A DNA stretch of 64,000 nt from Alphaproteobacteria bacterium (GTDB lineage: Bacteria > Pseudomonadota > Alphaproteobacteria > Rickettsiales > SXRF01): NCBI GenBank assembly GCA_033763775.1, contig JANRJW010000004.1, positions 8,755 through 72,754 of the forward strand. Direction: 5' to 3'. The notes under the pieces were generated by a model. That model did no database searches. It was not told where the DNA came from and was given only the letters and a program-made list of their open reading frames with translations. Below are positions 33,442 through 53,100 of this stretch, in pieces (within the stretch, counting starts at the first letter, position 1; every line of letters begins with the position of its first letter). The translations under genes were made by a program, and so were the position numbers.

Positions 33442-36159
33442 ATGACCCTCTCTCTTGCGCTGAATAATGCCTTAAGTGGCCTTAACGTCAACCAGCAATC
33501 GCTATCGGTGTTGTCGCAGAACATTGCCAATGCCAATACGCAGGGCTACACGCGCAAGGTGATCAATCAGGCGGCGCTCTATCTTGATGGCCGCGGCGCC
33601 GGAGTCAGCATTGAATCAGTTTCGCGTAAGGTGGATGACTATCTGCTGCGCTCCATTCGTCTGCAGGGGAGTGTGGTGGGGCGCGGTGAGGTATATTCGG
33701 ACTATGCGGATCGCACCCAGTTGCTGCTAGGCAGGCCTGGTAGCCAGAACAGTCTGCCGAGTTTTGTGGGTAATTTTTTTAACTCCATTCAAACGCTGGC
33801 ACAAACACCGGAAAACACCACACTACGCGTTGGTGCGGTCAATAGCGCTACGGCGATGACGCGTGAAATCCGTACCTTGTCGCAATCACTGCAGGATATG
33901 CGGCTGGAGGCGGAAAATGACATTGTGCAGTCGATTAACGTTATCAATGCTACGTTGCGTGATCTCAAGGCGCTCAATGCCACGATTGTTAATGATTCGC
34001 AGCTTGGCAAAAATGTCGGCGAATTGCTCGACCGCCGCGACCGAGCGCTTGCTACACTTTCTGAATATCTCGATATCGGCACCTATCAACAGGCGAATGG
34101 GCAGATCAATATCTTCACCAGCAGCGGTGCCAGCCTGCTGGATGATAATGTGTATCAAATCAGCTATCTACCGCAATCCTCAACCACGGCCTTCATTAAC
34201 GATTCGGTCAAGGCGCCGATTAATATTTTTCGTGTGAATGATAGCGGCCAGCTGACTGGTAACCCTGTGCAGCTGGTTTCTGGCGGCAGAAGCGCGCAGG
34301 TAACCAGTGGACTGGTAGGCGGCAAGCTGCGCGGTCTTATTGATATGCGCGATAAGCAGCTGCCGAATCTGCTGGCGCAGCTGGATGTGGTGGCGTCTAA
34401 CCTGCGCGATGAGTTTAACCGCGTGCATAATAGCGGCGTAGGTTTTCCTGGCGCTAATAGCTATACCGGTGCACGTCAGGTGAATGCTGGCAGTTTCAGC
34501 CAGTGGAATGGCCAGATGCGCATGGCGCTGATGGATGGTACGGGGCGTCCGATCCCATCATCCTACCCGGATGAAACTTCTGGCGTGCGTCCGTTGCTGC
34601 TGGATTTCACCAAGCTGAATACTGGCAGTGGCGCGGGCTTTCCGACAATTCAAGGCATCATTGACGAAATCAACCAATATTACGGGCCACCGCAGAACAA
34701 GGCGGTGGTAGGCAATCTTAATAATATCCGTCTGGCTTCCAACAGCACGATACTGCCCGGAAGCCCGCCGCAGTTTAATTTTGATTTCGACCTTGAGAAT
34801 ATCTCCGGTAGCAGCTCGAATTTTTTTGTCACCGGTGTTCAGGTGCTCGATAATGCCGGCACGGATATCACCAACGTATCGCAAACCATTCCGCAGGTGG
34901 ATTTAACTGGCACCGGCACCTATACCACGACCGCCGGCAGCAGCACCGTCACCGTGCGTGCTGCAGCAAATCACGGCTTTACCAACGGCCAGACGATCTA
35001 TCTCTCAACACCGCCGGGCAGTGTTGGCGGTATTCCTGGGGCGCAGCTGGGGGGATTTTTCACCATCAGTAATGTGACCTCCGATACGTTCGAGATCACC
35101 GCAGGCACGCTCGCTACGTCCAGTGGCCCTGTCGATGTCGTCGGACAGAACGCGAAGCCACCTTACAAGGAAGTTGCGGCAGGTGAATATGGCCGCACAA
35201 CGGATCGCGGCACCATTACCGCCAATCTTGCTGGTAATCCTAACGCGCTGTTTTACACCGTGCGTGTGAATGTGGCGGTGAAAGATGCGGCGGGCAACAT
35301 GACCACCTCGCAGATCAGCTATCAGGTGGATAATAACCAGCCGAACCTGCGCAACCGACGCTACTCCACCAATGGTGTCAGCGGTGGTGGACAGCTCGTG
35401 GCACCAACAAACTTTCGGCCGCTTGCGCGCGCCATGCTGGTGGATGAAAACGGTGTTGAGTTGCCGAAAGTCAACGGTCAGTACACAACGCAGCAAAATG
35501 GTTTTCTCCGCCTCGTGGCAGATAACCCAGACGTTTCAATCGGCATTGATAGTTTAAACAGTGCCGAAAATGGCAGCCCGAACAGCAGCCCGCCGGTCGC
35601 AGGCACGGGTAGAGGGTTTTCTTATTTCTTTGAGCTGAATAACTTCTTCCGTCATTTTGACACGAATGGCGACAGCGTTACCAATGCCGCACTTAATCTG
35701 GATATTGAGGAGCGCATCGCACGCAATCCCAACTTGATTTCGCTTGGTCAGCTACGTCAGAGCCCGCGCCCGGCGGATCCGAATCAGGCGCCGCTTTACA
35801 CCTATGAGCGCAATATCGGCGATAATAGCATCATTCAGCAGCTGGCAGGGATTTCCAGCAAGATTATCCGCTTTCAGGCGGCGGGCGGGCTGGGTGAATC
35901 GTCCACCACCTTTGGCAGCTATAGCGGTGCGATTATCGGATCAGCAGCGACAACCGCCTCATCCGCGGAGGCGGATTTAAAAAATGCCAAGGCACTGATG
36001 TCTGGCTTCAGCGATCGGTCTGATTCGATCAGTGGGGTGAATCTCGATGAGGAACTCGCCAATACAGTGATTTATCAGAATGCCTACACCGCCTCCACCC
36101 GGGTGATTACGGTGGTGAGCGAATTATTCGATGCGCTTTTGAATACGTTTGGAAGATAG
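33442..36159 (+). CDS. flgK: flagellar hook-associated protein 1 FlgK (long form, 905 aa)
   Basis: N-terminus LNNALSGLNVNQQSLSVLSQNIANANTQGYTR and C-terminus GVNLDEELANTVIYQNAYTASTRVITVVSELFDALLN. Confidence 0.95.
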   Translation: MTLSLALNNALSGLNVNQQSLSVLSQNIANANTQGYTRKVINQAALYLDGRGAGVSIESVSRKVDDYLLRSIRLQGSVVGRGEVYSDYADRTQLLLGRPGSQNSLPSFVGNFFNSIQTLAQTPENTTLRVGAVNSATAMTREIRTLSQSLQDMRLEAENDIVQSINVINATLRDLKALNATIVNDSQLGKNVGELLDRRDRALATLSEYLDIGTYQQANGQINIFTSSGASLLDDNVYQISYLPQSSTTAFINDSVKAPINIFRVNDSGQLTGNPVQLVSGGRSAQVTSGLVGGKLRGLIDMRDKQLPNLLAQLDVVASNLRDEFNRVHNSGVGFPGANSYTGARQVNAGSFSQWNGQMRMALMDGTGRPIPSSYPDETSGVRPLLLDFTKLNTGSGAGFPTIQGIIDEINQYYGPPQNKAVVGNLNNIRLASNSTILPGSPPQFNFDFDLENISGSSSNFFVTGVQVLDNAGTDITNVSQTIPQVDLTGTGTYTTTAGSSTVTVRAAANHGFTNGQTIYLSTPPGSVGGIPGAQLGGFFTISNVTSDTFEITAGTLATSSGPVDVVGQNAKPPYKEVAAGEYGRTTDRGTITANLAGNPNALFYTVRVNVAVKDAAGNMTTSQISYQVDNNQPNLRNRRYSTNGVSGGGQLVAPTNFRPLARAMLVDENGVELPKVNGQYTTQQNGFLRLVADNPDVSIGIDSLNSAENGSPNSSPPVAGTGRGFSYFFELNNFFRHFDTNGDSVTNAALNLDIEERIARNPNLISLGQLRQSPRPADPNQAPLYTYERNIGDNSIIQQLAGISSKIIRFQAAGGLGESSTTFGSYSGAIIGSAATTASSAEADLKNAKALMSGFSDRSDSISGVNLDEELANTVIYQNAYTASTRVITVVSELFDALLNTFGR

Positions 36160-36170
36160 TGAGGTGAGAG

Positions 36171-37082
36171 ATGAGTATTGGCCGCGTTAGTACTTTTGGG
36201 CTTCAGCAGACGACGCTTCGCGATGCGTCGCGTACGCAGGAGCAGCTTTCTCAGCTTCAGATACAGCTCTCGAGCGGTCTTAAAGCACAGACATTTGAGG
36301 GCATTGCCAACCAGACGGAGCAGTTTCTACAGCTCGATACGCGTATTTCCCGTACCAGACTTTTTACGGAGAATAATCGTGTGGCGATTACGCGCATGAG
36401 CACGACCGATAACGTGCTGAGCCAGTCGATTGAAACCGTGACCAGCCTCAAAAGCCTGATCATGCAGCGTCGCAACGGTGCGATAGCGGGCAATATGGCG
36501 TTTCCTGAACAGCTGGAGGGCATCTGGAAACGACTCTCGGCAGAACTTAATACCACGCTTGAAGGCCGCTATCTTTTCAGTGGCACGCGCACGGATGTCG
36601 CCCCGATTAAAAGCTCTCCTTTTCCAACATTGCGTGTCGATGGCGTACCGGATGATGGCTATTATAATGGCAGCAGCGATGATATGACCATCCGTGCGGA
36701 TGATAATATCGATATCACCTACAACGTGCGTGCCAACGAACCGGCATATCAAAAAGTTTTTGCAGCGCTTGCCATGGCAAAGAAAGGCCATGAAACCGAC
36801 AATCAGCAGGATCTGATTAAAGCCTTCGAGCTTGCCGATCAAGGGCTGAAAGAGGTGATATCCGTGCGTGCACGTGTCAGCTCTAACAAACTATCATTGG
36901 AACAGATTGTCGAGCGTCAGGACTCGCTGTCGCTTTACTGGAAAGGTGTGAAAGAAGAGATTTCTAACACCGATCTGGTGACGGTTTCCACCCAGGTGGC
37001 TGTCAATCAAGGAGTGCTGCAAGCGTCATTTCAGGCATTTGCACGAATTAATTCCTTGAGGCTCGTCGACTTTTTACGCTAA
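36171..37082 (+). CDS. flgL: flagellar hook-associated protein 3 FlgL
   Basis: 303 aa. Flagellin-like N-terminus (RVSTFGLQQTTLRDASRTQEQLSQLQIQLSSG) and C-terminus (QASFQAFARINSLRLVDFL). Confidence 0.9.
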   Translation: MSIGRVSTFGLQQTTLRDASRTQEQLSQLQIQLSSGLKAQTFEGIANQTEQFLQLDTRISRTRLFTENNRVAITRMSTTDNVLSQSIETVTSLKSLIMQRRNGAIAGNMAFPEQLEGIWKRLSAELNTTLEGRYLFSGTRTDVAPIKSSPFPTLRVDGVPDDGYYNGSSDDMTIRADDNIDITYNVRANEPAYQKVFAALAMAKKGHETDNQQDLIKAFELADQGLKEVISVRARVSSNKLSLEQIVERQDSLSLYWKGVKEEISNTDLVTVSTQVAVNQGVLQASFQAFARINSLRLVDFLR

Positions 37083-37099
37083 ATTAGAGGAGATATTTC

Positions 37100-37606
37100 A
37101 TGTTTTCATCAGCAGGGTATTACGGCATGCCAACACAACTTCCCATTTCCAGCGGTCAGGATGTCGCCGGCGCGCCTGCAGGCGTCATCAAATCGCGCTT
37201 TGGCGAGGTGGCGGTGGACCCAGCCAAAATTCTTTCATTTCCTCGTGGTCTGCTTGGCATGCCGGAGCGTTTTCAGTTTATTCTCACCAGCTTCCCCAGT
37301 GATAAAATGGCGCAGTTCAAACTGCTGCAATCAACCGAAGACGAGGCGCTCTCTTTCATCACTCTGCCGCTGGATCTGGATAACCCGATTATTGCGCGTG
37401 GTGATATTCTGCTTGCCTGCCGTGATCTTGGCATTGCCGAGCAGGATCTTGCGATGCTACTCATTGTTTCAGTGCATCGCACGCCGGATCAGGTGAAGCT
37501 TTCGGTGAATGCCCGCGCACCGCTGATGGTCGATGCGCAGCGCCGCCTCGGGGTGCAGCATGTATTTTCGAGTGATGACTACAAAGTCCAGCACATGCTT
37601 GGGTAG
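37100..37606 (+). CDS. fliW: flagellar assembly factor FliW
   Basis: 168 aa. SRFGEVAVDPAKILSFPRGLLGMPERFQFIL...FKLLQSTEDEALSFITL matches FliW/DUF180. GAGGAG Shine-Dalgarno. Confidence 0.88.
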   Translation: MFSSAGYYGMPTQLPISSGQDVAGAPAGVIKSRFGEVAVDPAKILSFPRGLLGMPERFQFILTSFPSDKMAQFKLLQSTEDEALSFITLPLDLDNPIIARGDILLACRDLGIAEQDLAMLLIVSVHRTPDQVKLSVNARAPLMVDAQRRLGVQHVFSSDDYKVQHMLG

Positions 37607-37610
37607 AGGC

Positions 37611-39233
37611 ATGTCACTTGGCAACAGCCTGATTGATTCTTATCAGAAAGCTGATGCACTCCTGTGCAGGGGCGAACTGCAGCAGGCGGCTGATATCTGT
37701 AAACAGATGCTGGAGAGCAATCCAAACTTTGCTTATGGGTATCACTTGATGGCCTCGCTGTTCAAGGTCACGGGTAATTTTGAAAAAGCACTGAATTTTT
37801 CGGATCTTGCGATCAAGCTTGATCCTAATGTGCCCAGCTTTTATCTGCAGCGTGGCACGTTGCTCATGGCGCTGCACTGTTATGAAGCTGCTGAGGATGT
37901 GTTTCGTAAAGCCTACCAGATGAAGCCGGGTTTGATCCAGGCGCTCCTAATGGCGGCGGATGCTAGTGTTCATCAAGGACGCCACGATGATGCGGCGCGT
38001 ACCTTTGCACTGGCGCGTAGCCGCGCCACGGATCATGAGCAGGCGGATATTGATCAGCAGGAAGGCTTATGCCAGCTATCGCTCGGGCAACTGGCACGAG
38101 CCGAGGCACTGTTTGAAAGGGTGATAGCGCAGCGGCCGAATCAAGCCGGAGGTTATCTCCATAAAGGCCATATCCTGCTGCATCAGCAGCGCGATCAGGA
38201 GGCGGAGGTCTGCTATGCGCGGGCACTCAATTGTGATCCTCACCTGCAGGAAGCGCTGCATGGCATGGCTGTGGTGAATGAGCGCCAAGGTCAGATTGAT
38301 ACGGCGGTGGCATTTGCTATTCAGGCGGTGAGTGCGCATGGCACCGTGCTTGATAGCCTGCTACTGCTCGGGCAGCTATTGTTGCGGAAACAGAATTTCT
38401 CCGCTGCAGAGCAGATGTTCCGTCAGGCATTGGCCGTGGTGCCAGATCAGGTGGTGGCGCTGTGCGGGCTGTCACAATCATTGATAGCGCAGCGCAGGCA
38501 GCATGAGCTGGCAAGTTTTCTTGCGGAGCAGGCCACGATCATGCCGCAGCACGAAGGGCTGATTTTTCTTGCGGCGGCGGCAAGTGGGCAGAATGCTTTG
38601 CGAGCGCCGCAAAGCTTCATCAGCAGCTATTACGATGAGCTGGCGCGGCGTTATAATTATTTTCTCAGGCCGCTCGATATGTATCAGCCGCACCAGTGTG
38701 CTGAAATGCTGCGCGCGCTACCACAACTACAGGGGCGAACGAGCCTCAGCCTTGTCGATTTAGGGTGTGGCGATGGACGCCTATCCGCAGCGCTGGGGGA
38801 TGGTTTCTCTTTGCGCCTCGGGGTTGATCTCTCCAAAGCGATGCTGGATATTGCCCAGATACACCGCCGTTATGATGAGACCTACACGTTGGATATGGTC
38901 GAATTCGCCATGGGTAGTGACCGTATGTTTGATATCGTCGCTGCGATTGATGTGCTGCCGCATCTGGGAGATCTTGTACCCTTTTTCCGTGCGGCACGAA
39001 ACCTTCTCGCTTCTGCCAGCGTCATGGTGTTTACGATTGAAAAATCCAATTTAGAAGCTGCCTACACGCTGCGTCCGAACGGGCGTTATATGCATAGCCA
39101 TGGCTTCATCCACGCATTGCTGCAGGATGAGGGCTATAACTGTGTGTTTTCTGAAGAGGTGTTGCTTCGTCTTGAGGCGGGCGTGCCGGTGATGGGCATG
39201 GTCTATGTTGTTCAGAAAATGACGGTGCACTGA
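37611..39233 (+). CDS. TPR-repeat protein with C-terminal class I SAM-dependent methyltransferase domain
   Basis: ATG at 37611. The N-terminal ~330 aa are TPR-like repeats. The C-terminus has motif I LVDLGCGDGRLS and DIVAAIDVLPHLGDL. Its stop overlaps the next ATG (tgATGa, 39231-39235). Confidence 0.75.
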   Translation: MSLGNSLIDSYQKADALLCRGELQQAADICKQMLESNPNFAYGYHLMASLFKVTGNFEKALNFSDLAIKLDPNVPSFYLQRGTLLMALHCYEAAEDVFRKAYQMKPGLIQALLMAADASVHQGRHDDAARTFALARSRATDHEQADIDQQEGLCQLSLGQLARAEALFERVIAQRPNQAGGYLHKGHILLHQQRDQEAEVCYARALNCDPHLQEALHGMAVVNERQGQIDTAVAFAIQAVSAHGTVLDSLLLLGQLLLRKQNFSAAEQMFRQALAVVPDQVVALCGLSQSLIAQRRQHELASFLAEQATIMPQHEGLIFLAAAASGQNALRAPQSFISSYYDELARRYNYFLRPLDMYQPHQCAEMLRALPQLQGRTSLSLVDLGCGDGRLSAALGDGFSLRLGVDLSKAMLDIAQIHRRYDETYTLDMVEFAMGSDRMFDIVAAIDVLPHLGDLVPFFRAARNLLASASVMVFTIEKSNLEAAYTLRPNGRYMHSHGFIHALLQDEGYNCVFSEEVLLRLEAGVPVMGMVYVVQKMTVH

Positions 39234-40399
39234 TGAGCGCGCTGCTACAGCATCCGCTGCTTGGCGAGTTTCAGTGCCTTGGGGATCGCTGCGCGGATAC
39301 GTGCTGCAAAAGCTGGTCGATGCAGCTCGATGCCGCTACCTATGAAACCTACCAGCGAGAAGCACCCGAGCTTCTGGATGCAGTGGAGGCGGCAGAAGAA
39401 TCACCATGGATCATGCGTAAGGATAAACAGACCGGTTATTGTGTGAAATTCGATAATGGCCTGTGCGGCATTCACAAAAATTATGGCGATAAGTTTCTCG
39501 GGGATGCCTGCCATTTTTATCCGCGCGCCACACGCAAGCTTGGCGATCAGACGATCATGACCGCCACGCTGTCCTGTCCCGAAGTGGCAAGGCTCGCGCT
39601 ATATGCGGATGCGCCCTTTGGCTGGCGCGAAACAACCATCGACCGCTTGCCCTTCAGCCTCAAGGACTATCTGCCCGAGGCGCTCAGCGGCGAGCAGGCG
39701 CGCCATGTCCATGAAGCTTTTCTTCATGCCTGCGAAGATGCCGCTCCAGCCGAACAGATTCTTGCACGCATAGCCAGTGTGGCACGTTCCATGATGCTTC
39801 TGGATCAGGCAAGCTGGCCACAAGCGGTGGGTTTTTATTTGCGTATGGCCGACGGTCGTCTGCCTGCTGCTAAGGCGGATGTGAATGACCCGTTTAACCT
39901 GCTCCACGCGCTGATGGGGATTATTGTCGCCACTCGCAAGCCGATGAGCGAGCGCTTGCGCCAGACAGTTTCACAGATGCAGGCGATGCTGGCTGTCACT
40001 CTCGACTGGCAGACCACACAGATACACACCACCGATGCCAGCGCGCCAGCTTATCAGCAGGCGCGGCAGAACTGGGATGAGCACGCCGCATATTATCAGC
40101 CGCTTCTGAAACGCTACCTGCAGATGCAACTCTCTGTTTCTCTTTTTCCATTTTCGGGGCTTGGATCAAACGCGCCGGAGCGTATCACGCTGATCGGTGT
40201 CAGGCTCGCCACCATCAGGCTGGCACTGATGGCTGCGCATCAATGCCATGGCGATGTGCCGAATCAGGAAGAGGTGGTCAGGGTGGTGCAAAGTTTATCG
40301 CGCTGTCTGGATCATCTGGGCGATGCAGCCTTTTCACTCGCCATTTATCATGAAACGGGCTGGGATCAGGAAGCGCGCCTTCGTGGGCTGCTGATATGA
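39233..40399 (+). CDS. fliB: FliB-like flagellin lysine-N-methylase family protein
   Basis: 388 aa. The N-terminus FQCLGDRCADTCCKSWSMQLD...YCVKFDNGLCGIHKNYGDKFLGDACHFYPR parallels Salmonella FliB (FSCSGSACRDHCCKGW...C.......LC...C..FPR). Confidence 0.7.
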   Translation: MSALLQHPLLGEFQCLGDRCADTCCKSWSMQLDAATYETYQREAPELLDAVEAAEESPWIMRKDKQTGYCVKFDNGLCGIHKNYGDKFLGDACHFYPRATRKLGDQTIMTATLSCPEVARLALYADAPFGWRETTIDRLPFSLKDYLPEALSGEQARHVHEAFLHACEDAAPAEQILARIASVARSMMLLDQASWPQAVGFYLRMADGRLPAAKADVNDPFNLLHALMGIIVATRKPMSERLRQTVSQMQAMLAVTLDWQTTQIHTTDASAPAYQQARQNWDEHAAYYQPLLKRYLQMQLSVSLFPFSGLGSNAPERITLIGVRLATIRLALMAAHQCHGDVPNQEEVVRVVQSLSRCLDHLGDAAFSLAIYHETGWDQEARLRGLLI

Positions 40400-40450
40400 A
40401 ACCTAAAAATTTTCTTGTGATTCTTCAGTGGTGTGCTAGCTTTATGCACA

Positions 40451-40490
40451 TAAAGTTGAATTTTCTAATGCGGCATTAACGAAGCATTAA
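40451..40490 (+). promoter_or_regulatory. candidate fliC promoter region: sigma-28-like TAAAGTTG-N11-GCGGCATT overlapping a TTAA-N7-TTAA CtrA-type box
   Basis: taaagttg (40451-58), 11 nt, then gcggcatta. The -10 is a weak match to GCCGATAA. ttaacgaagcattaa at 40476-40490 is an exact TTAA-N7-TTAA. About 100-140 nt upstream of the fliC ATG. Confidence 0.3.
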
Positions 40491-40592
40491 GGAATTCACA
40501 GTAAAACTGTAGGGTAGTGTGGTCATAGAAGACCGCATTGGTACGGAGAGCATGTAGCACTCCATGTTTAACATCCATGTAGGAGACGACCC

Positions 40593-43500
40593 ATGGTCAA
40601 CTCAATTAACACCAATATTGCGGCTTATTTTGCGCAAGCAAACATCAGTCGCGCATCCGATATGTCCTCATCGTCAGTCGCGCGTCTTTCGAGCGGTAAC
40701 CGCATCGTAAGAGCGTCCGATGACGTAGCAGGTCTTTCTATCGGTACCAGCCTTCGCACCAGCGTTTCGGCACTGCGTACCGCACTCGTGAACGCCTCGC
40801 AGGGCTCCAGCCTGCTTCAGGTTGCTGACGGTGCGCTCTCGCAGGTGACGGAGATTCTGCAACGTCAACGCGCCATTGCCTTCCAGGCGGGTTCGGGTAC
40901 GCTGCAAAACTCTGACCGCGTGTTCCTCAACCAGGAATTCCAGGCACTGACCTCTGAGGTCGATCGTCTGACGGGTTCCACCAACTTCAACGGTGTGCGC
41001 CTGCTCAACGGTTCGCTCACCAGTGCTGCTGGTATTAATTCGAATAGCAACGCTTCCACGGGCGGCGAACTTCGCCTCAACTTCAACGATCTCATCACGG
41101 CTGGTGAGTCGGTGATCGTTGGCGGCGTGACCATGGTTGGTCTGAGCTCTGCCTCGACCGATCCGCGTGGTTTCGTTGTCACTGCAGATATCAACACCAC
41201 CCTGCAGAACCTTGCTAACGCGCTCAATAACCTTGCTTCGAACGCTACTTACGGTACGTCGGTTGGCCAGGCTATTTACAGCGTGGATGGTAACTCGCTG
41301 GTGGTTAAATCCCGCACCGGCGGTACGCTCAGCAACAACTTCACCTCTTCTTCTGTGGCTACCGGCCAGTCGCTGAACGGCCTTGGATCTGCTGCTGTAG
41401 GCACGGCTGCTGGTGATGATATCACCATTAACCTTGCGAATTCCGGCTTTGTCGTCGGCCAGCGCGTAGTGTTTAATGGTATGTCGGCTGTCGGCGGTAT
41501 CACGCTCTCTGGCGAATATGTTGTGACCGCAGTAAGCGGCAGCAACTTTACCATTGATCAGGCTGGTACGCCTAGCAACACCACCAACGTGAACCAAGGT
41601 GCTAACGCGATCGTCTATGCTGCGACCGCTGCTTATACCAGCTCGGTTTCCTTTGGTGAGGCTACCTTCAACACTGGTGGTTCCAGTTTCAGCCTGTTTT
41701 CAACCACGGGTGCCACCTCGGCAACCACGGTGGTTTCTGCAAACGCGGCAGCAGCTGGCACACCTTTTGCCAACGGTGATTCCATTACCGCAACCGTGAA
41801 CGGCGTGACCAAGACCCTCTACACCTTTGGTGCAGCGAGTGACGGTGGTGCGCGTACGTTGAAAGACGTGGTGGATGGCATCAATGCTAACTTTGCCAAT
41901 ACTGGTTTCAAAGCAGCGCTGACCTATAGCGGTGGCGGCTATAACATTCGCCTCAGCTATGCCGGCAACGCCAGCAACGTGATCATTGATTACGGCAGCA
42001 ACTATGTTGGCACTAACTATGCTGTGGCTGGCCAGGGTATTGGCACTACGGCTGCGAATGGTGCAACAACAGCTACTACGGCTACCCGTGCGCTGTTTGG
42101 CACCAGCTACATTGATGTGTTGAACACTGCGAGCGGTGTAGCGAACTTAACCACCTCTGTGGTTGGTACCGATGCTACGGCTCCGTTTGCTGTTGGCAAC
42201 ACCATCACGCTGAACGTCAACGGCAAGAGCGAAATCCTGCATACGATTGCTGCAGGCAACACTCTGACGCAGATTGTCAGCAGCATCAACTCACGCACTG
42301 CCGACACTGGTGTAGTTGCGATGATCAGCGGCACTTCAGGCGCCTACAACATTCGCCTGTTTGTTTCTGATTCAGCTGCTTCCCCAACTGTTGCAGGCAG
42401 GACGAACGATGTGATCACCGTCAGTTCAGCCACAGCGCTGGGCAGCGGTACGGTGAACGCAGCTACATTTGGCACGATCGATTCCAGCACGGTGCTGGTG
42501 CGTAACAGCAACTTCGGTCTTGCGGGTGGTCTGGATAACGGCATCAGCGCAGGCAGTGTTTCGGTCACCGGTTCGGTGGGCGACAGCATCCTGACCGCGT
42601 TGGCACAGACTCGTGCGAACAGCTCGCTCATCTTCACCTCAAACGCTTCGGAGAACGACACCATTACCCTTGGTGGTAAGGTGTTCACGTTCACCAGCAA
42701 CACGACCCGCGGTGTGGATGAAATCCTGATCGGCTCGACAATTTCCGAAACGATCGACAACCTGATCAATACGCTGCGCAGTTATCTGGCGAACGGTAAC
42801 GCCACGACAGCAGAGGCCTACCAGCTCAACCAGATGGAATTTGCCCGCAGCGGCAATACCTTCACGGTGACGGGCAAGGGTCTTGGTAACATTACCACCA
42901 TCAATGGTGCGAATGCGACCATCGCACGTTCCAACACCACTGGTACGTCGCTCACCTCGGGCACGTTCAACAACGCCTCCAGCACCTATGGCGTGGATGT
43001 GACCGGCATCACCAACGCGGCTTTCCGCGGTGTGCTGCAGGGCTTCCAAGCCACTTACACAGGTACGGCGGATACGGTGAACCTATCGATCAAAATCGGC
43101 GACTTCACCTACACTGCTAACAACCTGGATGCCACGGTGTCTGCGAATACCCGGGTTCGCCTGTATTCCAATACGGTGGATGGTAAAAATGGTGGGTATT
43201 TCGATATCCAGCTTGCTTCGGGCGCTGTTGCCAATGGCTTCAGTGATCAAGCCGGTGCGGATGCGATTGCCAGCCGTCTGAACGTGGCGTTCACCACACT
43301 GACCTTCCGTCAGGAACGCCAGATCTCTAGCTACAATGGCACACAAGGTATCTCTTCCAACGGCACCATCATTGGTTCGCTGGTGGGTACCAGAGTGTCG
43401 GCTCAGGTGAATGATTTCAGCAGCCTCCGCTTGTCTGATATCAAAGTCACCGCACCGACCGGTAGTGCTACTGATGCGAAGATCAGCCTGCTCATCAATG

Positions 43501-44093
43501 GTGTAAGCTACAGCACCACGGCAGGTCTTGGTTCGAAGCTCGGCGCTAATCAGACCTTCCGTCTGGTCAGCGAGGTGGATGCGAATCAGTATCTCGAGTT
43601 CACGACTGGTAACACCTCCATCGATATCAGCTCGGCAGCAAACGCTGCTGCGGTTGAAACCGCTCTGAAGAGCGCCTTTGGTGCGACCTCCGGCTCTGCC
43701 GCGCTGTCGTTCCAGATCGGCTCCAGCGCGACCGATACGCTTGCTGTATCGATTGGTGATGCGACCACAGACTCGCTGTTTAACGGCGAAGTGCTCGATG
43801 TGTTGAGCCAGGCCAGCGCAACCCGCGCTGCCGCTGTACTCGATGCAGCACTACAGAAGGTCACCAGCATCCGTGCGGATGTGGGTGCGCTGCAATCCAG
43901 GTTTAACTTTGCTTCAGCGAACATTCAGATCGCTGTGCAGAACCAGGACGCCGCGCAGTCTCAGCTGCTCGATACTGACATTGCCTCTGAGTCGACATCG
44001 TATGCTACCTCGCAGGTAAAACTGCAGGCTGGTATCTCGGTACTCGCTCAGGCTAACCAGCAGCTCCAGGCTCTTCTGAAGCTGATCGGTTAA
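40593..44093 (+). CDS. fliC: flagellin, giant form (1166 aa)
   Basis: N-terminus MVNSINTNIAAYFAQANISRA...LSSGNRIVRASDDVAGLSIG and C-terminus IRADVGALQSRFNFASANIQIAVQNQDAAQSQLLDTDIASESTSYATSQVKLQAGISVLAQANQ are canonical D0/D1 segments. About 880 aa of Thr/Ser/Gly/Ala/Asn-rich middle. Confidence 0.95.
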   Translation: MVNSINTNIAAYFAQANISRASDMSSSSVARLSSGNRIVRASDDVAGLSIGTSLRTSVSALRTALVNASQGSSLLQVADGALSQVTEILQRQRAIAFQAGSGTLQNSDRVFLNQEFQALTSEVDRLTGSTNFNGVRLLNGSLTSAAGINSNSNASTGGELRLNFNDLITAGESVIVGGVTMVGLSSASTDPRGFVVTADINTTLQNLANALNNLASNATYGTSVGQAIYSVDGNSLVVKSRTGGTLSNNFTSSSVATGQSLNGLGSAAVGTAAGDDITINLANSGFVVGQRVVFNGMSAVGGITLSGEYVVTAVSGSNFTIDQAGTPSNTTNVNQGANAIVYAATAAYTSSVSFGEATFNTGGSSFSLFSTTGATSATTVVSANAAAAGTPFANGDSITATVNGVTKTLYTFGAASDGGARTLKDVVDGINANFANTGFKAALTYSGGGYNIRLSYAGNASNVIIDYGSNYVGTNYAVAGQGIGTTAANGATTATTATRALFGTSYIDVLNTASGVANLTTSVVGTDATAPFAVGNTITLNVNGKSEILHTIAAGNTLTQIVSSINSRTADTGVVAMISGTSGAYNIRLFVSDSAASPTVAGRTNDVITVSSATALGSGTVNAATFGTIDSSTVLVRNSNFGLAGGLDNGISAGSVSVTGSVGDSILTALAQTRANSSLIFTSNASENDTITLGGKVFTFTSNTTRGVDEILIGSTISETIDNLINTLRSYLANGNATTAEAYQLNQMEFARSGNTFTVTGKGLGNITTINGANATIARSNTTGTSLTSGTFNNASSTYGVDVTGITNAAFRGVLQGFQATYTGTADTVNLSIKIGDFTYTANNLDATVSANTRVRLYSNTVDGKNGGYFDIQLASGAVANGFSDQAGADAIASRLNVAFTTLTFRQERQISSYNGTQGISSNGTIIGSLVGTRVSAQVNDFSSLRLSDIKVTAPTGSATDAKISLLINGVSYSTTAGLGSKLGANQTFRLVSEVDANQYLEFTTGNTSIDISSAANAAAVETALKSAFGATSGSAALSFQIGSSATDTLAVSIGDATTDSLFNGEVLDVLSQASATRAAAVLDAALQKVTSIRADVGALQSRFNFASANIQIAVQNQDAAQSQLLDTDIASESTSYATSQVKLQAGISVLAQANQQLQALLKLIG

Positions 44094-44161: not shown

Positions 44162-44527
44162 ATGGATGTATTAGGAACAATAAAACCAGCAGCTACTACG
44201 CCCATGCCGGTGAAAGCATCGGCGGTACTTCCTGCTGCGTCATCTGCGCAAAGTATTCAATTGCCGCAACGCAATCTGGAGACCGTGCAGTATGATGCTA
44301 AAGTGGCGGATGCAAAGCGCCAGGAAGCGGTTGCCAATGCTGCGCGCAACGCGCCGCAGCCTCTGGGCAGTCAGGTCTTTACCATGTTCAAAGACTCTAC
44401 CGGCCAGATCGTGACGCGCTTTCGCGACACCAATAGCGGCAAAGTGACCTACATACCAGAGCCGCAGCTACTACGCATGGCAGGCAATACCAGCGGTTCG
44501 GAATCGCTGCTGAATATCAAGGTTTAG
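44162..44527 (+). CDS. flaG: flagellar protein FlaG
   Basis: 121 aa. The C-terminal TMFKDSTGQIVTRFRDTNSGKVTYIPEPQLLRMAG fits the FlaG family. AAGGAGG Shine-Dalgarno. Confidence 0.8.
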   Translation: MDVLGTIKPAATTPMPVKASAVLPAASSAQSIQLPQRNLETVQYDAKVADAKRQEAVANAARNAPQPLGSQVFTMFKDSTGQIVTRFRDTNSGKVTYIPEPQLLRMAGNTSGSESLLNIKV

Positions 44528-44545
44528 CACGAAACATCGTGCGCT

Positions 44546-44561
44546 AGGCATGAAAATTGCT
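44546..44561 (+). promoter_or_regulatory. sigma-54-like promoter between flaG and fliD
   Basis: aggcatgaaaattgct has GG and GC at consensus spacing (TGGCAC-N5-TTGCW) with two deviations. Confidence 0.45.
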
Positions 44562-44578
44562 TAGAATGAACTAGACAT

Positions 44579-44620
44579 AGAGCCACGCGCACCAGCGGGT
44601 GAGCCGAGTGGCTCTTTTTG
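44579..44620 (+). terminator. intrinsic terminator-like hairpin plus U-tract
   Basis: agagccac / gtggctct 8-bp outer stem with further inner pairing, followed by ttttt. Lies 30 nt before the fliD ATG. Confidence 0.65.
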
Positions 44621-44650
44621 TCTCTTAGTTATGCATGATCAAGAGGCGTT

Positions 44651-46777: not shown

Positions 46778-46782
46778 CTGGC

Positions 46783-47241
46783 ATGACCAGCAGGCAGAAA
46801 TATCAGGCCTACGCCTCAGCCACGCAGACGGTGGCGCGCACTAAGCAGATTGTCATGCTGTATGATGCCGCCATTCGCTATCTCCAGCAGGTCAAAGAGG
46901 CGATTGCGGAAAAACGCATTGAAGATCGCTATCATCTGCTCATTAAAGCAAGCGAGATTATCTTTGGTTTGCAGTCCTGCCTTGATTTTGAAAATGGCCG
47001 CGATATTGCGAAGATTCTCTACCAGTTCTATTCTTCCATCGACAGCCGCATTTTTGCTATCCATCGTTCGGCCAGCCTTGAGGGCTGCGATGAAATCATT
47101 GCCGAATTAAAGCAGATGCGCGATGTCTGGCACGATATCGATCAGGGCACATTGCCTGCCAGTGAACCGGCGGCTGCGCCGGCCACCACCACAGCGCCTA
47201 TTGCTCCTGCGGCAGAAGGTTCTGTCAGTTTCTCTGCCTGA
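46783..47241 (+). CDS. fliS: flagellin-specific chaperone FliS
   Basis: 152 aa. QIVMLYDAAIRYL...ASEIIFGLQSCLDFENG..IAKILYQFYSSI pattern. Pro/Ala-rich C-terminal tail. Confidence 0.9.
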   Translation: MTSRQKYQAYASATQTVARTKQIVMLYDAAIRYLQQVKEAIAEKRIEDRYHLLIKASEIIFGLQSCLDFENGRDIAKILYQFYSSIDSRIFAIHRSASLEGCDEIIAELKQMRDVWHDIDQGTLPASEPAAAPATTTAPIAPAAEGSVSFSA

Positions 47242-47290
47242 TACCTGTTTTTCCTGATATTTTTGCTGTTTGTACAAATATTGCTGCTGG

Positions 47291-47306
47291 TGGCACGGCG
47301 ATTGCA
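47291..47306 (+). promoter_or_regulatory. sigma-54 promoter upstream of fliK-flgD-flgE
   Basis: tggcacggcgattgca is a full match to TGGCACG-N4-TTGCA, 46 nt before the fliK ATG. Confidence 0.85.
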
Positions 47307-47351
47307 TTGCAATGAAGTCAGTAGACTCATTTCAAAGTATCAGGAGCCATT

Positions 47352-49193
47352 ATGGCAAATGTTTCCGTTTCCCTTCTTAAGCTGGCGCAGCCGGCATCTT
47401 CTGCAACTGGCGATGCTCGCGTGGAATCTGCCCAGGATTTCAGCCTGCTGCTGGCAAGCGGGCAGGGCGCGGGCGATCAGGGTCTCAAAAAACGCAGGCC
47501 AGATGAGCTGCAGGGTAATTTGTTCGCGCAGCCAATGCTTCTCCCGGATGTGATGCCCCAGCGGGTAAGCCCGGCGCGGGGTTCGGTCGAAGCGAGCCCT
47601 GAGCCGGACATGGATAACATTCAGCCGCAGACGGCGACACCGCAAATGCCTGAACGCCGCTTAGCATCGCGCCGAGCTGCAAGCGAATCGCGCGAAGATG
47701 CTAGCGAGACCACCGCACCGCAAAAACCAGCAGCGCCGCGTGCGGCTGATTCAGATGCAAAACAACCTGTCTCGCAAGAGCGCGATGCTGCGGAGGTTAG
47801 CGAATTTTCTTCTGCTGAGTCGCCGGCGATATCGACCGCGACGAACCCGGCAGAGACAGAGCCGTCAAAGGAAGTTTCCAAGCTGGCGGATGAGATGCAA
47901 AAGCAGCTTGCCGCCATGCTTGCGTCGGGTAATTTTGCCGGGCTTTTATCGCTGCTGCGCGAATTTGTAGCGCAACTGCAGTCGCTTGCGCAGGGGCAGC
48001 CGGGTGCTGCTGCGGTGCAGCTGGGGGGTGGCACATTTCAGGCCGAGGCGCAGTCAGCTGGCGCAGCGCCAATGAATGGTCAGGCTTTCCTGCTGCAACT
48101 TTCCGCGCAGCTTCAGGGATTGGTGCCGCAGAATGCATCATCGCTAACGCTGCCGCCTGAAGGAAGTTTCAGCCAGTCGCAGCTGGCCATGCTGACGCGT
48201 CAGCTTCAAGCGGCAATTGCCTCGTGGCAATCATCACGACAATCGCCAGGTGCTCAGTCTAGCAATCCGACCGATACGTCATCCCTGGCACAGACGCTTC
48301 AAACCCTGCGCGCTGCGCTGGCTTCTGCGATGAATGATAGTGTCGCCAGTTTTCAGGCGGCAGAAGTCGCAACACCGGCAGCAACCACACCCATTCCCGC
48401 CGCTTCTGCTGAAACCGCGGTGCTACGTCCTCAGGATAGACCCGTAACGGCCTCGGAGCCATCAACAGCGCTTTCTTCAGTAGCTGGAGAAGCCGATAGA
48501 TCGGTTGCGCCGGTGCTATCATCACCCGCGCAGGCGCCATCTTCATCACAGACGGCTGTTCAAAATCCCTCACAGGCTGAGACGCTACTTGCTTCGCAAG
48601 CCGTGGTGGCATCCGGGCAGGCATCATTATCAGATGGTGAAGGAAGCGGCTCAGAAGGACGATCATCGCAAGCGCCGCTTCAGGCCATAGGCCAGCCCTC
48701 AACCGCACCCGCAGATGCATCGCATGGGCGTGTACATACAGCGGCATTTTCTCGCCTGTTGCAACCGCAGCCCAGCCAGCCAGTTGCTGATCAGGTCGCG
48801 GTGCAGATTAAAACGGCACTGCGTGATGGCAGCAGCAGCATTACGATTCAGCTGGATCCAGTGGAGCTGGGCAAGCTGGATATCAAGCTGCATGTGGCCT
48901 CAGATGGCCGCACGCAAGTGGTGATAACCGCGGATAATAAAGACACGCTGGCATTGCTGCAGAAAGATAGTGGCGGGCTGGAGCGTGCTCTGTCTGATGC
49001 GGGGCTGAAGGCAGATAGTGGCAGCCTGAGTTTTAATCTGCGTCAGGGTCATAGCCAGCAGGAATCTGACCACCAATATGCCAGAGAGAGCTACCTCAAA
49101 ACCATGCCGGACGAGGAGGAAGTGCCGCCGGCGAGCGTGATTGCGCGAAACTACATGGTCAGCCTCACTGAAGGCATTGACATTAAAATTTAA
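47352..49193 (+). CDS. fliK: flagellar hook-length control protein FliK
   Basis: 613 aa. Long Pro/Ala/Ser/Gln-rich ruler and C-terminal Flg_hook domain (ITIQLDPVELGKLDIKLHVASDGRTQVVITADNKDTLALLQKDSGGLERAL). Confidence 0.88.
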   Translation: MANVSVSLLKLAQPASSATGDARVESAQDFSLLLASGQGAGDQGLKKRRPDELQGNLFAQPMLLPDVMPQRVSPARGSVEASPEPDMDNIQPQTATPQMPERRLASRRAASESREDASETTAPQKPAAPRAADSDAKQPVSQERDAAEVSEFSSAESPAISTATNPAETEPSKEVSKLADEMQKQLAAMLASGNFAGLLSLLREFVAQLQSLAQGQPGAAAVQLGGGTFQAEAQSAGAAPMNGQAFLLQLSAQLQGLVPQNASSLTLPPEGSFSQSQLAMLTRQLQAAIASWQSSRQSPGAQSSNPTDTSSLAQTLQTLRAALASAMNDSVASFQAAEVATPAATTPIPAASAETAVLRPQDRPVTASEPSTALSSVAGEADRSVAPVLSSPAQAPSSSQTAVQNPSQAETLLASQAVVASGQASLSDGEGSGSEGRSSQAPLQAIGQPSTAPADASHGRVHTAAFSRLLQPQPSQPVADQVAVQIKTALRDGSSSITIQLDPVELGKLDIKLHVASDGRTQVVITADNKDTLALLQKDSGGLERALSDAGLKADSGSLSFNLRQGHSQQESDHQYARESYLKTMPDEEEVPPASVIARNYMVSLTEGIDIKI

Positions 49194-49205
49194 CCGGAGA
49201 TTGGT

Positions 49206-50129
49206 ATGATCAATACGAACGCAGTTTCAAATTCGGTAGGTGGCGGCAAATCTCGCGAATCGCTGGGCAAGATTGACGAAAACTATCAGAATTTTCTAAC
49301 CCTGCTGACAACACAGCTCAAAAATCAGGATCCATCCGATCCCACCGATACCAATCAGTTGACGCAGCAGATTGCAACCCTCTCGCAGGTGGAGCAACAG
49401 CTTAAGACCAACGAAAATCTTGAAAAGCTGGTGGGGATGTACAGTGCCACACAATATAACAGCGTGGTGTCCTATATCGGTAAAAAAATTGAAGCCGAGG
49501 GCGATGCAGGCGCACTTAAAAATGGTACGGCAAGTTTTTCCTACAATCTTTCCAGCGCAGCGAATGATGTCAAAATTATCATTCGTGACAAGGACGGCAA
49601 TCTTGTTCGAACCGATAACTTGAGCGGTATTCGTAATGGCGGTGGCCATCGCTATAACTGGGATGGCAAGGATAATCAGGGCAACGTCGCAGGTGAGGGC
49701 GAGTATACGCTCACGGTTGAGGCGCGTCTCGGCAATAGCACCATATCGGCCACGGGCAACGCAGCTGAGCTGCGCCATACCAAGCCAGAATTTGTTTACT
49801 ATCTTGCGCAGGATGCCGCGTCGCTTACCATTACCATCAAGGATAAGAATGGTGGCATTATTCGTCGCGACACCGCAGGTGGCACAAAAATTGCTGGCCG
49901 TAACAGCTATGTATGGGACGGTAAAGATAACAACGGAAATACGATGCCTGAAGGTGAATACAAAATCGAAGTAGCGGCGAAGGACAATGCGAACAAGGAT
50001 ATTGTCGCAAAGACTTTCATGACCGGTGTGGTGACATCGATCGATAGCGTGAATGGTTCTGCATTCCTTTCGATTGGTGACATCGCGATTCCGCTGGAGC
50101 GGGTGACTTCCATCCGCTTGGCAAGCTAA
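49206..50129 (+). CDS. flgD: flagellar hook assembly (cap) protein FlgD with duplicated Ig-like domain
   Basis: 307 aa. NYQNFLTLLTTQLKNQDPSDP N-terminus. Two tandem units each ending in xWDGKDNxGNxxxEGEYxxxVxA. Confidence 0.92.
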   Translation: MINTNAVSNSVGGGKSRESLGKIDENYQNFLTLLTTQLKNQDPSDPTDTNQLTQQIATLSQVEQQLKTNENLEKLVGMYSATQYNSVVSYIGKKIEAEGDAGALKNGTASFSYNLSSAANDVKIIIRDKDGNLVRTDNLSGIRNGGGHRYNWDGKDNQGNVAGEGEYTLTVEARLGNSTISATGNAAELRHTKPEFVYYLAQDAASLTITIKDKNGGIIRRDTAGGTKIAGRNSYVWDGKDNNGNTMPEGEYKIEVAAKDNANKDIVAKTFMTGVVTSIDSVNGSAFLSIGDIAIPLERVTSIRLAS

Positions 50130-50156
50130 CAGGATTTATAACACAGGAGTTTTTTT

Positions 50157-53100
50157 ATGAGTTTGTACGGTTCGCTTTTCTCTGGTGTGTCGGGACTGCG
50201 CTCGCAGAGTAACAAAATCGGCATCATCTCGGACAACATCTCCAACGTGAATACGGTGGGTTACAAAGCAGGTTCTGGCTTGTTTCAGAGTCTGGTGACC
50301 ACCGCTTCTGTTTCATCGACCTTCTCTCCGGGCGGTGTACTTGGCGGAAATCGCCAGCTGGTTAGCAAGCAGGGGCTTTTGCAGTCCACCGATTCACCCA
50401 CTGATATTGCGATTTCCGGTGGTGGCTTTTTTGTAGTGAATCAGGCGGCGGATCAGAGTGGCCGTACGTTCTACACACGTGCTGGTTCCTTCCGTCAGGA
50501 TTCCACCGGCAACTTCCGCAATGCTGCGGGGTTTTTCCTGCAGGCATGGCCGCTGGATCGCGAGGGGCGTCTGCCGGGTGAGCCAGGCAATACTAATACT
50601 ACTTCCAGCGCCAACCTTACCAGTCTTCGTACGGTTAACGTGCAGAACTTAACGGGCGTTGCGGCAGCAACGACCAATGTTTCAGTGGGTGCGAATCTGC
50701 GCGCTTCGCAAACTGTATTCCCAGGTGCTTCGGCAACCGCCAGCATGGATGCGCTGCATACGGTGAACTTTAACATCCGCGCGAAAGACATCATTACGCC
50801 GGATAACAGTTCGCCATTTGTTAACCGCATTCAGCGCGGCGATAAATTCTCTGTCAGCACCGGGGCGGGGCTCAGCTATACCTATCGCTATGGCGGCTTT
50901 ACGTTTGGCCGCGATGTCAGCAATGCTAACAGCGGCGATAATGGCCTGAACCTTCTGGCTGGTAACACGACCATTTCTGGCTCTGATACGCTATTGGCAA
51001 CCCCGTTTACTGTACCTAACAATAGCAACGTCGTCACCGTGACGATGGCTAATCATGGCCTTCTTACTGGTGATTCCGTTACCCTTGCTGGCAACACCTC
51101 CCCGGCGGGCGATCTTGGCACGATTCCAGGGACTCAGCTGAACGGTTCATTCATTATCACCAGAGTCGATGATGATACATTTACTATCCGTACAGTTGCT
51201 TCTAACACCTCTGGTGGTGCTGTTACGGGGGGTGCAACAGGTATCACTGCAAGCCCAAGAACTTTCAGTATCAGTGGTGAAGGCAGCAACGTAGTTCGTG
51301 TGCGTCAGCGCGATCATGGCCTGGCGACGGGTGCGGTGGTAACGCTCTCTGGCAACACGGATAGTTTTGCGGGTATTCCCTCTTCGGAACTCAATGGCAA
51401 TTTTGTGGTCACCGTGATTGATGCGGATCACTACACCATCAATACCGTCAACTCTGCCACTGCAACCACACTCGGCGCAACGCCGTTCAGCACCACGAAC
51501 GGTAGCCGGGACGTTGTGATTACTTCAACTGGCCACAACTACACGGTGGGTGATTCGGTAACTCTTTCCGGCAACACGGATACGACCAACTTCACGAGTG
51601 CCAACGATATCAATGGCACGTTTGTGGTGGTGGCTGCCACGGCCAATACTTTTACGGTTCGACTGACTAACCCGGCGATTGCTACCTCTGCGACGGCGGG
51701 TGCTGGCACCATCAAGGTGATTGAGCAGGCAGGCGGATCAGGTACGCTTATTTCCAATACCCGGCCGTTTGTTGGTAACGTGCTCGATGCCACCAGTCCG
51801 ACCCAACCGTTCCTCGGCACGACGGGCACCGCTGGCTATACACCATCCGGCCTCACCTTTACCATCACCACGGTCACCACGGGCACGGTAACCTTTACCT
51901 ACACCTCGGCCTCACCAAACCCTCAGCTTGGCCAGTTCAATAACCTGAACAACCTCGCTTCGGCGATCAGTTCAGTCAACGGCCTGTCAGCCCGCGTGGT
52001 GGATAACCGTCTTTATGTCAGCGCCACCAATGCTAACGAAGCGATCACCTTCTCTAACGGTTCCACGATCGGCACCTCCGGGCCACCAGTGCAAGCCGGT
52101 ATTGACTGGGTGCGTGAGCTGGGGCTTGATAGCCTCTCAGTAGGCACCGATCGTTTCAGCACCTTGGAAGGTCTTGCGGCACTCATCAATAACTCTGCAG
52201 GCGTCAGCGCAACGATTGAAAACCCAACATCTAACGCATCGCTGCGCATCAATGTGGATGATCCGCTGGATACCATCACCTTTGCCGACAGACCGGTGCC
52301 AACGGGCGGCTTTTCCGCCGCAGCCTTCGGCACGAATCCGCTGGCAACCACGGCCAATAGTCGCATCGTGACCATTACTACACTGGCGGCGCATGGTCTG
52401 ACCACGGGGGATATTATCACTCCGTCGGGCATTCCTGCTGGTACTTACAATGGTATCCCCGACACTGCGATCAACGGAAGTGCGTTTGAAGTGACCGTTA
52501 CTGGTCCCAACACCTACACCATCCGGTTGCCAGCTCAGTATTCCGCGACTGCTACGGGATCCTTTGGTGGTAGTGGTAACCTGACCACGACATCGCCCAC
52601 CAATGCCGGCAGTATTCTCGCTGAGCTTGGACTGGTGAACTCGCTGGCAGGTGCTTCCTTCACAGCGCAGACCACGGGTGCCATCGGCCCGGCCTATGAC
52701 CCGACCAACCCGCTGAAGAATATGGCATCTGGCGCTATTCCCGCGCAGTTCAGCCGTCCTATCCGCGTGTTTGATTCACTCGGTACCGGCCACGATCTCA
52801 GTGTGAACTTCATTAAGATTGGGGTGAATAACTGGGCGGTGGAAGTGTTTGCGCTTCCGGCGAGTGACGTGACCACGGCGCTGCCTAACGGCCTTTTGAC
52901 CTATGGTACCGTCACTTTCAACGGCGATAGCAGTCTTCGCAGTGTCAGCTCGCTGCTTGCTGATCCGGTGAATGCGACATGGACGAACGGCGCTGCTGCC
53001 AGCACCATTAACTTCAACTGGGGCACGGCAGGTCAGCCATTTGGCACCCCCGGTGCGGCAACGGTTGGCCTGACTGATGGTCTCAGCCAGTTTGACAGCG

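Follow-up and report, generated by a model that had tools for sequence, protein, structure and literature searches.

A phage-type beta-barrel module is shared by the hook, hook-filament junction and flagellin proteins of an uncultured alphaproteobacterium

The flagellar gene cluster of an uncultured freshwater alphaproteobacterium encodes a hook protein (FlgE), a hook-filament junction protein (FlgK) and a flagellin (FliC) that share one inserted domain, present in four copies in FlgE and in a single copy in each of the other two. The cluster occupies positions 30.8-54 kb of a 64,000-nucleotide stretch, hereafter the window (contig JANRJW010000004.1, positions 8,755 to 72,754, assembly GCA_033763775.1), which is 99% identical to contig CANHDY010000003.1 of the metagenome-assembled genome 'Rickettsiales bacterium RE-15aug16-6'. 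Modelling indicates that the module is an independently folding beta-barrel of ~65-70 residues, belonging to the family of the phage endosialidase barrel and, more distantly, of the FCCH domain of ubiquitin E1. The copies, and the region that separates two of them, are as follows (window coordinates, strand, amino acid (aa) range, hhalign probability; iE, independent E-value; pLDDT, predicted local distance difference test score of the AlphaFold2 (AF2) model):

50985-51224, + strand: FlgE module 1, aa 277-356; hhalign 98.9%; pLDDT 86.7; module match at position 1 in 119/120 listed FlgE homologs
51243-51470, + strand: FlgE module 2, aa 363-438; hhalign 99.1%; phmmer match to module 1 with iE 5e-12
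51471-51689, + strand: FlgE module 3, aa 439-511; hhalign 99.3%; H-N-Y in place of H-G-L
51690-52319, + strand: FlgE middle region, aa 512-721; a different, better-conserved domain of ~210 aa between modules 3 and 4
52320-52556, + strand: FlgE module 4, aa 722-800; hhalign 99.1%; holds the best PF16190 stretch of FlgE (aa 734-796) and scores 27.4 bits alone
34909-35130, + strand: single FlgK module, aa 490-563; hhalign 99.1% on the ortholog alignment; iE 2.5e-9 with the FlgE-only model; same position in the related loci L001-L010
41397-41582, + strand: single, divergent FliC module, aa 269-330; hhalign 98.2%, E 3.3e-14; iE 2.1e-5 with the 230-module model; own AF2 model with pLDDT 63

An initial annotation, made from the letters of the DNA, had drawn attention to these segments, and the six amino acid ranges and nucleotide coordinates that it listed all translate exactly as given. 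Its count of four, one and one is likewise exact: a scan of the module profile along full-length ortholog alignments recovers the same numbers of sites in FlgE, FlgK and FliC, and the next-best probabilities are at most 2.2%. Profile scans of the window detected no module copies beyond the six, and FlgL, FliD, FliK and FlgD are devoid of them. The copies had been assigned to the variable middle of axial proteins, and Pfam core matches do flank every one. In FlgE the copies are bounded by the D1 match (aa 85-159) and the D2 match (aa 864-992), the FlgK copy follows the D1 match (aa 101-337) and precedes the C-terminal rod motif (aa 863-901), and the FliC copy sits between Flagellin_N (aa 5-141) and Flagellin_C (aa 1082-1165). 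The modules are inserted, as outer domains are, between the N- and C-terminal segments forming D0, D1 and D2. The FlgE middle region, which has neither a Pfam nor a module match, could, judging by topology, reach farthest outward in the hook subunit.

The relationship between the hook and junction copies is readily detected. Among the 819 six-frame open reading frames (ORFs) of the window, a hidden Markov model (HMM) restricted to the four FlgE copies detects the FlgK copy (iE 2.5e-9) and nothing else, and the four FlgE copies all match one another in single-sequence phmmer comparisons (iE 5e-12 to 2e-3). Judged by these searches, the FlgE and FlgK copies are related beyond doubt. The FliC copy escaped the small FlgE models and the pairwise methods (best iE 0.72) and was therefore tested separately with ortholog profiles. 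A model of 230 modules, drawn from homologs of FlgE and orthologs of FlgK and including no FliC sequence, matches FliC aa 271-327 over nearly its whole length (iE 2.1e-5, 20 bits). Of the 31 closest FliC orthologs, 20 are matched by this model at the corresponding position, with 17-56 bits; the scores rise to 56 bits in proteins that have a second module copy adjoining the first.

Profile-profile comparison, which the initial annotation had named together with shuffled controls as a test able to refute its proposal, gives a clear outcome. A profile of 17 FliC orthologs was aligned by hhalign to a profile of 48 diverse FlgE and FlgK modules with a probability of 98.2%, an E-value of 3.3e-14 and a score of 71 over 67 columns, as against scores of no more than 16.5 for 60 column-shuffled FliC alignments of unchanged composition and 11.3 for the reversed alignment. 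These results confirm that the six copies form one family and that a single inserted domain is common to the proteins of hook, junction and filament. The copies are old: amino acid identity among them is 18-46%, identity at third codon positions is 0.25-0.42, and long nucleotide repeats are absent. The same architecture recurs in many independent assemblies, which excludes an assembly artefact.

The AF2 model of FlgE module 1, built from a 48-sequence alignment, is confident and almost all beta. Its best matches in the Protein Data Bank (PDB) are the beta-barrels of the phi92 and K1F endosialidases, with a query template modelling score (TMq) of 0.71-0.73, a root-mean-square deviation (rmsd) of 1.5-1.7 A over ~70 columns and 24-28% identity. 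The FliC copy, modelled separately from its own ortholog alignment, likewise retrieves the K1F and phi92 endosialidases first (TMq 0.60-0.67) and then UBA6. In Foldseek the FCCH domains of UBA6 and UBA1 rank below the endosialidases, with TMq 0.43-0.57, rmsd 3-5 A and probabilities of 0.6-0.94. The initial annotation had reckoned with structure prediction yielding unrelated folds; since two separately built models give the same ranking, this is not the case, and the End_beta_barrel fold (PF12195) is the top PDB match of both. At the sequence level, the module profile matches UBA1 FCCH (E 1.8e-4) and the phi92 endosialidase (4HIZ, E 2.5e-4) in the PDB, followed more weakly by phage tail and tail-tube proteins, and no solved flagellar protein is among the matches. 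Single-sequence phmmer of module 1 against the PDB returned noise only.

The assignment to existing families is less straightforward. FlgE scores 43.4 bits with PF16190 (E1_FCCH; whole-protein cutoff 29.5 bits), with its best stretch at aa 734-796, and only the score summed over its four copies passes the cutoff. Taken singly, module 4 (27.4 bits), module 1 (18.8), the FlgK copy (16.3) and module 2 (15.0) all fall below it, module 3 and the FliC copy show no match, and whole FlgK and whole FliC also remain under the cutoff. PF16190 is a domain of ubiquitin-like-modifier activating enzymes, whereas the hosts here are FlgE, FlgK and a flagellin. The cutoff of PF12195 (35 bits) is not reached either by module 1 (17.8 bits) or by module 2 (18.4 bits); PF12195 matches are carried by some FlgE homologs (P0056, P0080, P0083) and by other module carriers (P0121, P0126, P0127). 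Many FlgE homologs have already been tagged PF16190 by automatic annotation. This E1 FCCH label is misleading on hook proteins, and 'phage-type surface beta-barrel' is a better description.

TAL-effector proteins, which head the PDB profile lists, were considered and rejected: no single stretch is significant, the score sums an 18-residue 'HGLT..VV' word over repeats, and the 34-residue TALE repeats are helical whereas the module is all-beta. Summed over the many repeats of TAL-effector proteins, matches to the word 'HGLTxGDxVTL' give whole-sequence E-values (as low as 1.5e-18) that look strong and are spurious, and automated annotation could be misled by them.

Outside this locus the module is widespread. 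An exhaustive HMM search of every protein among 1.84 billion cluster representatives identified 5,762 carriers at E<=1e-3 and 1,195 at E<=1e-10, ranging from 141 to 6,564 aa and containing up to 27 matched stretches; the five-copy alignment had given no match in a word-indexed homolog search. In a sample of 59 of the shorter cluster representatives, 33 match phrog_3287, a virion structural protein, others match tail-protein and baseplate-wedge families, and 12 reach PF16190. The remaining carriers include very large, secreted-looking bacterial proteins and FlgE proteins. Predicted viral structures in BFVD that match the module include tail spikes, tail fibres, baseplate wedge proteins and giant-virus proteins, with TMq up to 0.84. 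The initial annotation had pointed to a likeness to small HGL..GD modules of phage tail-fibre-like proteins, which is substantiated by these virion and tail families, by the BFVD spikes and fibres and by the endosialidase fold.

Phage modules often occur as two to four tandem copies near the N-terminus. They align with the flagellar modules at hhalign E-values of 1e-13 to 7e-28, and the scores of phage against FlgE modules (110-135) are comparable to those of the FlgE positions among themselves (116-153). The FliC modules are equally distant from all module groups (65-72), and the FliC copy taken as a single sequence is closest to phage-type proteins. These scores would be compatible both with derivation of the FlgK and FliC copies from FlgE and with separate acquisitions. 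When the three FlgE modules that stand in tandem were compared by tblastn with 50,697 phage genomes, the sole match was a weak one in Synechococcus phage S-N03 (structural protein; 35.6% identity, E 2e-4), which gives no evidence of recent transfer from a cultured phage.

Two further carriers, one a flagellin and the other a candidate flagellum-associated protein, were noted in metagenomes. A related flagellin of 1,409 aa (P0195) has three well-scoring modules at aa 593-830 and none at the site around aa 270, which suggests separate insertions or relocation within flagellins. Another metagenomic contig encodes, two genes from fliL, a protein of 1,611 aa (P0121; L014 5989-10824) with an N-terminal DUF1217 followed by nine module copies. 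DUF1217 genes are located inside Brucella flagellar loci (PMC7410920), and this protein may be a fourth flagellum-associated carrier. On the speculative reading set out below, it would point to additional proteins of the flagellum that have come to share the module. The window itself contains no DUF1217 gene.

The distribution of the module among relatives outlines its history. The best 120 listed FlgE homologs all originate from uncultured 'Rickettsiales' or 'Alphaproteobacteria' assemblies, and every one has the module, in 1 to 5 copies. FlgE length tracks the copy number (~825, 925, 1015, 1110 and 1200 aa), each copy adding ~90-100 aa. Position 1, at about aa 275, is occupied in 119 of these homologs, and further copies sit in tandem behind it or after the better-conserved middle domain of ~200 aa. 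The FlgK copy is found at the same place in ten related loci whose FlgK proteins are 48-99% identical, and is lacking in the more distant FlgK proteins of L011-L013, two of which are the next in similarity (38-39% identity, ~790 aa) and one gammaproteobacterial. Among flagellins, only the closest have a recognizable copy. With proteins assigned to loci by inference, FlgE and FlgK both carry modules in L003, L004 and L007, and a FliC copy is detectable in L004 and not in L007; L010 has a FlgK module and a flagellin without a detectable copy, and no FlgE was matched to that locus. The Caulobacter FlgE model (505 positions) aligns only to both ends of the window FlgE. Given this alignment and the distant FlgK proteins that lack the module, the copies are insertions, and the possibility raised at the outset, that the module is an ordinary annotated part of these axial proteins across most alphaproteobacteria, does not hold.

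The modules are the fastest-evolving and least conserved parts of FlgE and FliC. In FlgE, mean identity to orthologs is 48-56% in the modules, 71% in the middle region and 81-83% at the termini; the corresponding values in FliC are 32% for the module as against 69-74% for the termini. Hundreds of copies, in three proteins, retain the core motifs HG[LF]xxGD, NGxF and [TY]T[IV]. The 230 homologous modules are rich in Thr, Ser and Gly (~27% Ser or Thr) and contain hardly any charged residues (K 1.1%, R 0.9%). Lysine is missing from all six window modules, and FliC as a whole has only 16 lysines.

The explanation that we favour, with moderate confidence, is that a phage-type surface domain has been recruited as the outer decoration of three consecutive axial structures. 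A mobile 'bead' domain, often in tandem, of phage virion, tail, tail-fibre and baseplate proteins and of giant secreted bacterial proteins would have been inserted into the outward-facing middles of three consecutive axial proteins in one uncultured alphaproteobacterial lineage ('Rickettsiales bacterium' in GenBank), and the FlgE copies would then have been amplified by duplication. The 1 to 5 copies in FlgE, with protein length rising with each copy, are the behaviour expected of a bead and support this explanation. The chain of axial proteins of known structure passes outward from the core and then returns to it, and from this topology we infer that the modules lie at the outside of hook, junction and filament. 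The assembled hook (four copies per subunit), junction (one) and filament (one) would then all display the domain on their outer surface. In Salmonella the hook has ~120 subunits, the junction 11 FlgK and the filament thousands of flagellins; with such numbers, ~120 hook subunits with four copies each, 11 FlgK and thousands of flagellins would expose the same domain. Its most likely role would be that of a structural decoration: a thick, fast-evolving layer that adds bulk or stiffness and provides a face toward the surroundings. Such a role has been proposed for giant flagellins (PMC6248924) and for the sheaths formed by flagellin outer domains (PMC8931119).

Several points weigh against this explanation. 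FlgL (303 aa) and FliD lack the module, and any outer layer would therefore be interrupted at FlgL. The FliC model has a pLDDT of 63, which is moderate confidence. A passive or shielding role would account for the rapid evolution and the varying number of copies no less well than a mechanical one. Surface exposure, deduced from the topology of the chain and the low conservation of the modules, is a prediction, as are any contacts between subunits and any function.

Three other functions can be envisaged, and chance similarity was considered as well. If the modules bound polysaccharide, hook and filament, as they rotate, would serve as a multivalent adhesin directed at particles, prey, hosts or the cell's own capsule. 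The closest solved fold is an endosialidase beta-barrel, which in the K1F tailspike holds one of three polysialic-acid binding sites and a hotspot for host discrimination (PMC12632334), and End_beta_barrel has served as a marker domain of phage receptor-binding proteins (PMC9230537); many carriers, moreover, are tail fibres, tail spikes and baseplate proteins. A glycan-binding role is possible by this analogy. However, identity to the endosialidase barrel is just 24-28% and the window modules stay below the PF12195 cutoff (17.8-18.4 as against 35 bits). A fixed ligand site is also hard to reconcile with a copy number that varies from one to five among close relatives and with modules that are the least conserved parts of their hosts, and a lectin or adhesin layer is in our estimation the main rival, though a rather improbable one. 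The same rapid evolution and variable copy number, together with the nearly uncharged, Thr/Ser/Gly-rich composition, would suit a passive shield of cheap, freely evolving spacers, without a specific role, that mask the axial core from flagellotropic phages, grazers or proteases. Yet the core motifs are retained throughout the family, so that the fold must be under selection, and a shield leaves the recruitment of the same domain three times unexplained; we regard it as unlikely.

The initial annotation had also proposed that the modules are a common substrate for adjoining modification enzymes, by methylation or glycosylation. A FliB-type lysine-N-methylase (NF038110, 145 bits) and a TPR and SAM-methyltransferase protein are indeed encoded between fliW and fliC, a Wzy_C-domain protein adjoins flgE, and the Ser/Thr content of the modules is high. 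The six modules have no lysine, however, and therefore cannot be substrates of FliB, the enzyme that can be identified; no glycosyltransferase, Maf or nonulosonic-acid synthesis family was recognized among the scanned ORFs of the window. Very little credence can be given to this proposal, which is disfavoured for the lysine methylase in particular. As to chance similarity or an assembly artefact, a low-complexity-like composition and the failure of pairwise methods to find the FliC copy would speak for it, but shuffling that preserves composition never approaches the real score, two separately built models reach the same fold first and the architecture is kept in many separate assemblies. Together with the scan of the ortholog alignments, these results refute that reading.

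Recruitment of a phage-type domain as outer decoration thus remains our preferred account, and it can be extended further. The flagellum might be clad in receptor-binding-type domains captured from phages, present on hook and filament and, through FlgK, across most of the junction, so that the only gap would be at FlgL. As it rotates, this multivalent coat might bind glycans and so attach the cell to hosts, prey or particles or engage its own envelope; alternatively, it might shield the flagellum from flagellotropic phages or act as a decoy for them. Hook copy number would tune its reach. This extension is speculative and improbable. The system is nevertheless a testable candidate for a glycan-binding flagellar surface, and the recruitment would be a tangible example of domains passing between virions and a motility organelle. 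The natural series of FlgE proteins with one to five copies is clean material for asking what outer domains contribute mechanically.

The genes that encode the three hosts lie in a compact cluster in which every gene is on the + strand except fliX. Identities are based on Pfam and NCBIfam; the Wzy_C gene just beyond the cluster is included in the list:

start of the cluster, before flgK: fliX (- strand), flgI and a weak FlgN-like ORF
33442-36159, + strand: flgK, hook-filament junction protein (HAP1), 905 aa; TIGR02492 flgK_ends 292.6 bits (cutoff 170.75), Pfam FlgK_D1 at aa 101-337, rod motifs at both ends
between flgK and the methyltransferase gene, + strand: flgL (FlgL 303 aa) and fliW
37533-39233, + strand: TPR and SAM-methyltransferase gene, 566 aa, between fliW and fliC
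39233-40399, + strand: FliB-type flagellin lysine-N-methylase, 388 aa, directly upstream of fliC; NF038110 145 bits (cutoff 85), no match in a Pfam scan of this ORF
40593-44093, + strand: fliC, giant flagellin, 1166 aa; Flagellin_N 5-141, Flagellin_C 1082-1165, Flagellin_IN 537-585
after fliC, + strand, in this order: a 121-aa ORF, fliD (708 aa) and fliS
47352-49193, + strand: fliK, 613 aa
49206-50129, + strand: flgD, 307 aa; two matched stretches of the FlgD Ig-like domain
50157-53498, + strand: flgE, giant hook protein, 1113 aa; TIGR03506 266.7 bits, Pfam D1 85-159, FlgE_D2 864-992, C-terminal rod motif, PF16190 43.4 bits
53659-54027, + strand: DUF2671 protein, 122 aa, between flgE and the Wzy_C gene
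54466-56526, - strand: membrane-type protein, 686 aa, with a Wzy_C (O-antigen-ligase-like) domain, just downstream of flgE and on the opposite strand

The length of FliK and the two Ig-like stretches of FlgD raise the possibility that other hook-assembly parts are enlarged alongside the giant FlgE. The remainder of the window consists of ordinary chromosomal housekeeping genes (plsX, hflKC, degP, ilv and leu genes, mreBCD, PBP2). Unrelated to the flagellar modules, a 622-aa protein encoded between leuA and mreB (23979-25847, + strand) fuses an HTTM domain to a DCC1-like thiol-disulfide oxidoreductase domain.

Flagellin outer domains are diverse and their functions mostly unexplained, and extra outer domains of the hook are known from few lineages. 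Both the domain family described here and outer-domain insertions in general are known; in the literature covered, which is incomplete, no description was found of a phage-type module shared by hook, junction and filament, of variation in its hook copy number or of its link to phage virions. The closest counterpart is the phage endosialidase beta-barrel (PF12195; PDB 1V0E, 3GVK, 4HIZ), the best structural match (TMq 0.60-0.73, 24-28% identity) and, like the module, a small accessory barrel set into a larger protein at the surface of a fibre or filament. Here, in contrast, the host is a flagellar axial protein and not a depolymerase, the copies score below the Pfam cutoff and tandem arrays occur. 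The FCCH domain of ubiquitin E1 resembles the module by the FlgE score above the PF16190 gathering threshold (43.4 as against 29.5) and by the profile match to UBA1, but the structural match is weaker (TM ~0.5, rmsd ~4 A) and neither the E1 context nor a catalytic role is found in the flagellar hosts. Carriers among phage virion, tail, tail-fibre and baseplate proteins (phrog_3287, phrog_2048 and others) belong to the same sequence family, at the hhalign E-values given above, and differ in being part of a virus particle instead of a bacterial motility organelle.

A precedent for a short module that recurs in several external flagellar proteins is provided by Flagellin_IN (PF07196), which is present in FliC and FliD of this cluster. 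It is, however, another sequence family at other positions (FliC aa 537-585, FliD aa 483-532), and its matches lie off the modules without overlap, so that the modules are not members of it. A Flagellin_IN-type segment is internally duplicated in FliC (aa 385-462 and 528-595, nucleotides ~41745-41978 and 42174-42377) and in FliD (aa 156-221 and 470-540), with phmmer iE of 6.5e-11 and 8.7e-15, respectively; the FlgE middle region (aa 512-721) has no significant similarity to these repeats. In epsilonproteobacteria, D3 and D4 of FlgE are extra outer domains that thicken the hook; the best stretch of the epsilonproteobacterial FlgE model TIGR02489 on the window FlgE is aa 862-1109 and does not extend into the inserted region. 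Large inserts are also found in the giant flagellins of Bermanella and Oleibacter, which have evolved by internal duplication plus new inserts (PMC6248924). These flagellins, the flagellin outer-domain sheaths (PMC8931119) and the epsilonproteobacterial D3 and D4, in which filament or hook is thickened, share with the present case large insertions into a variable middle. They differ from it in their folds and in having been described one protein at a time, whereas here one identifiable, mobile domain of phage-virion type would have been recruited into three axial proteins and amplified to a variable extent in the hook.

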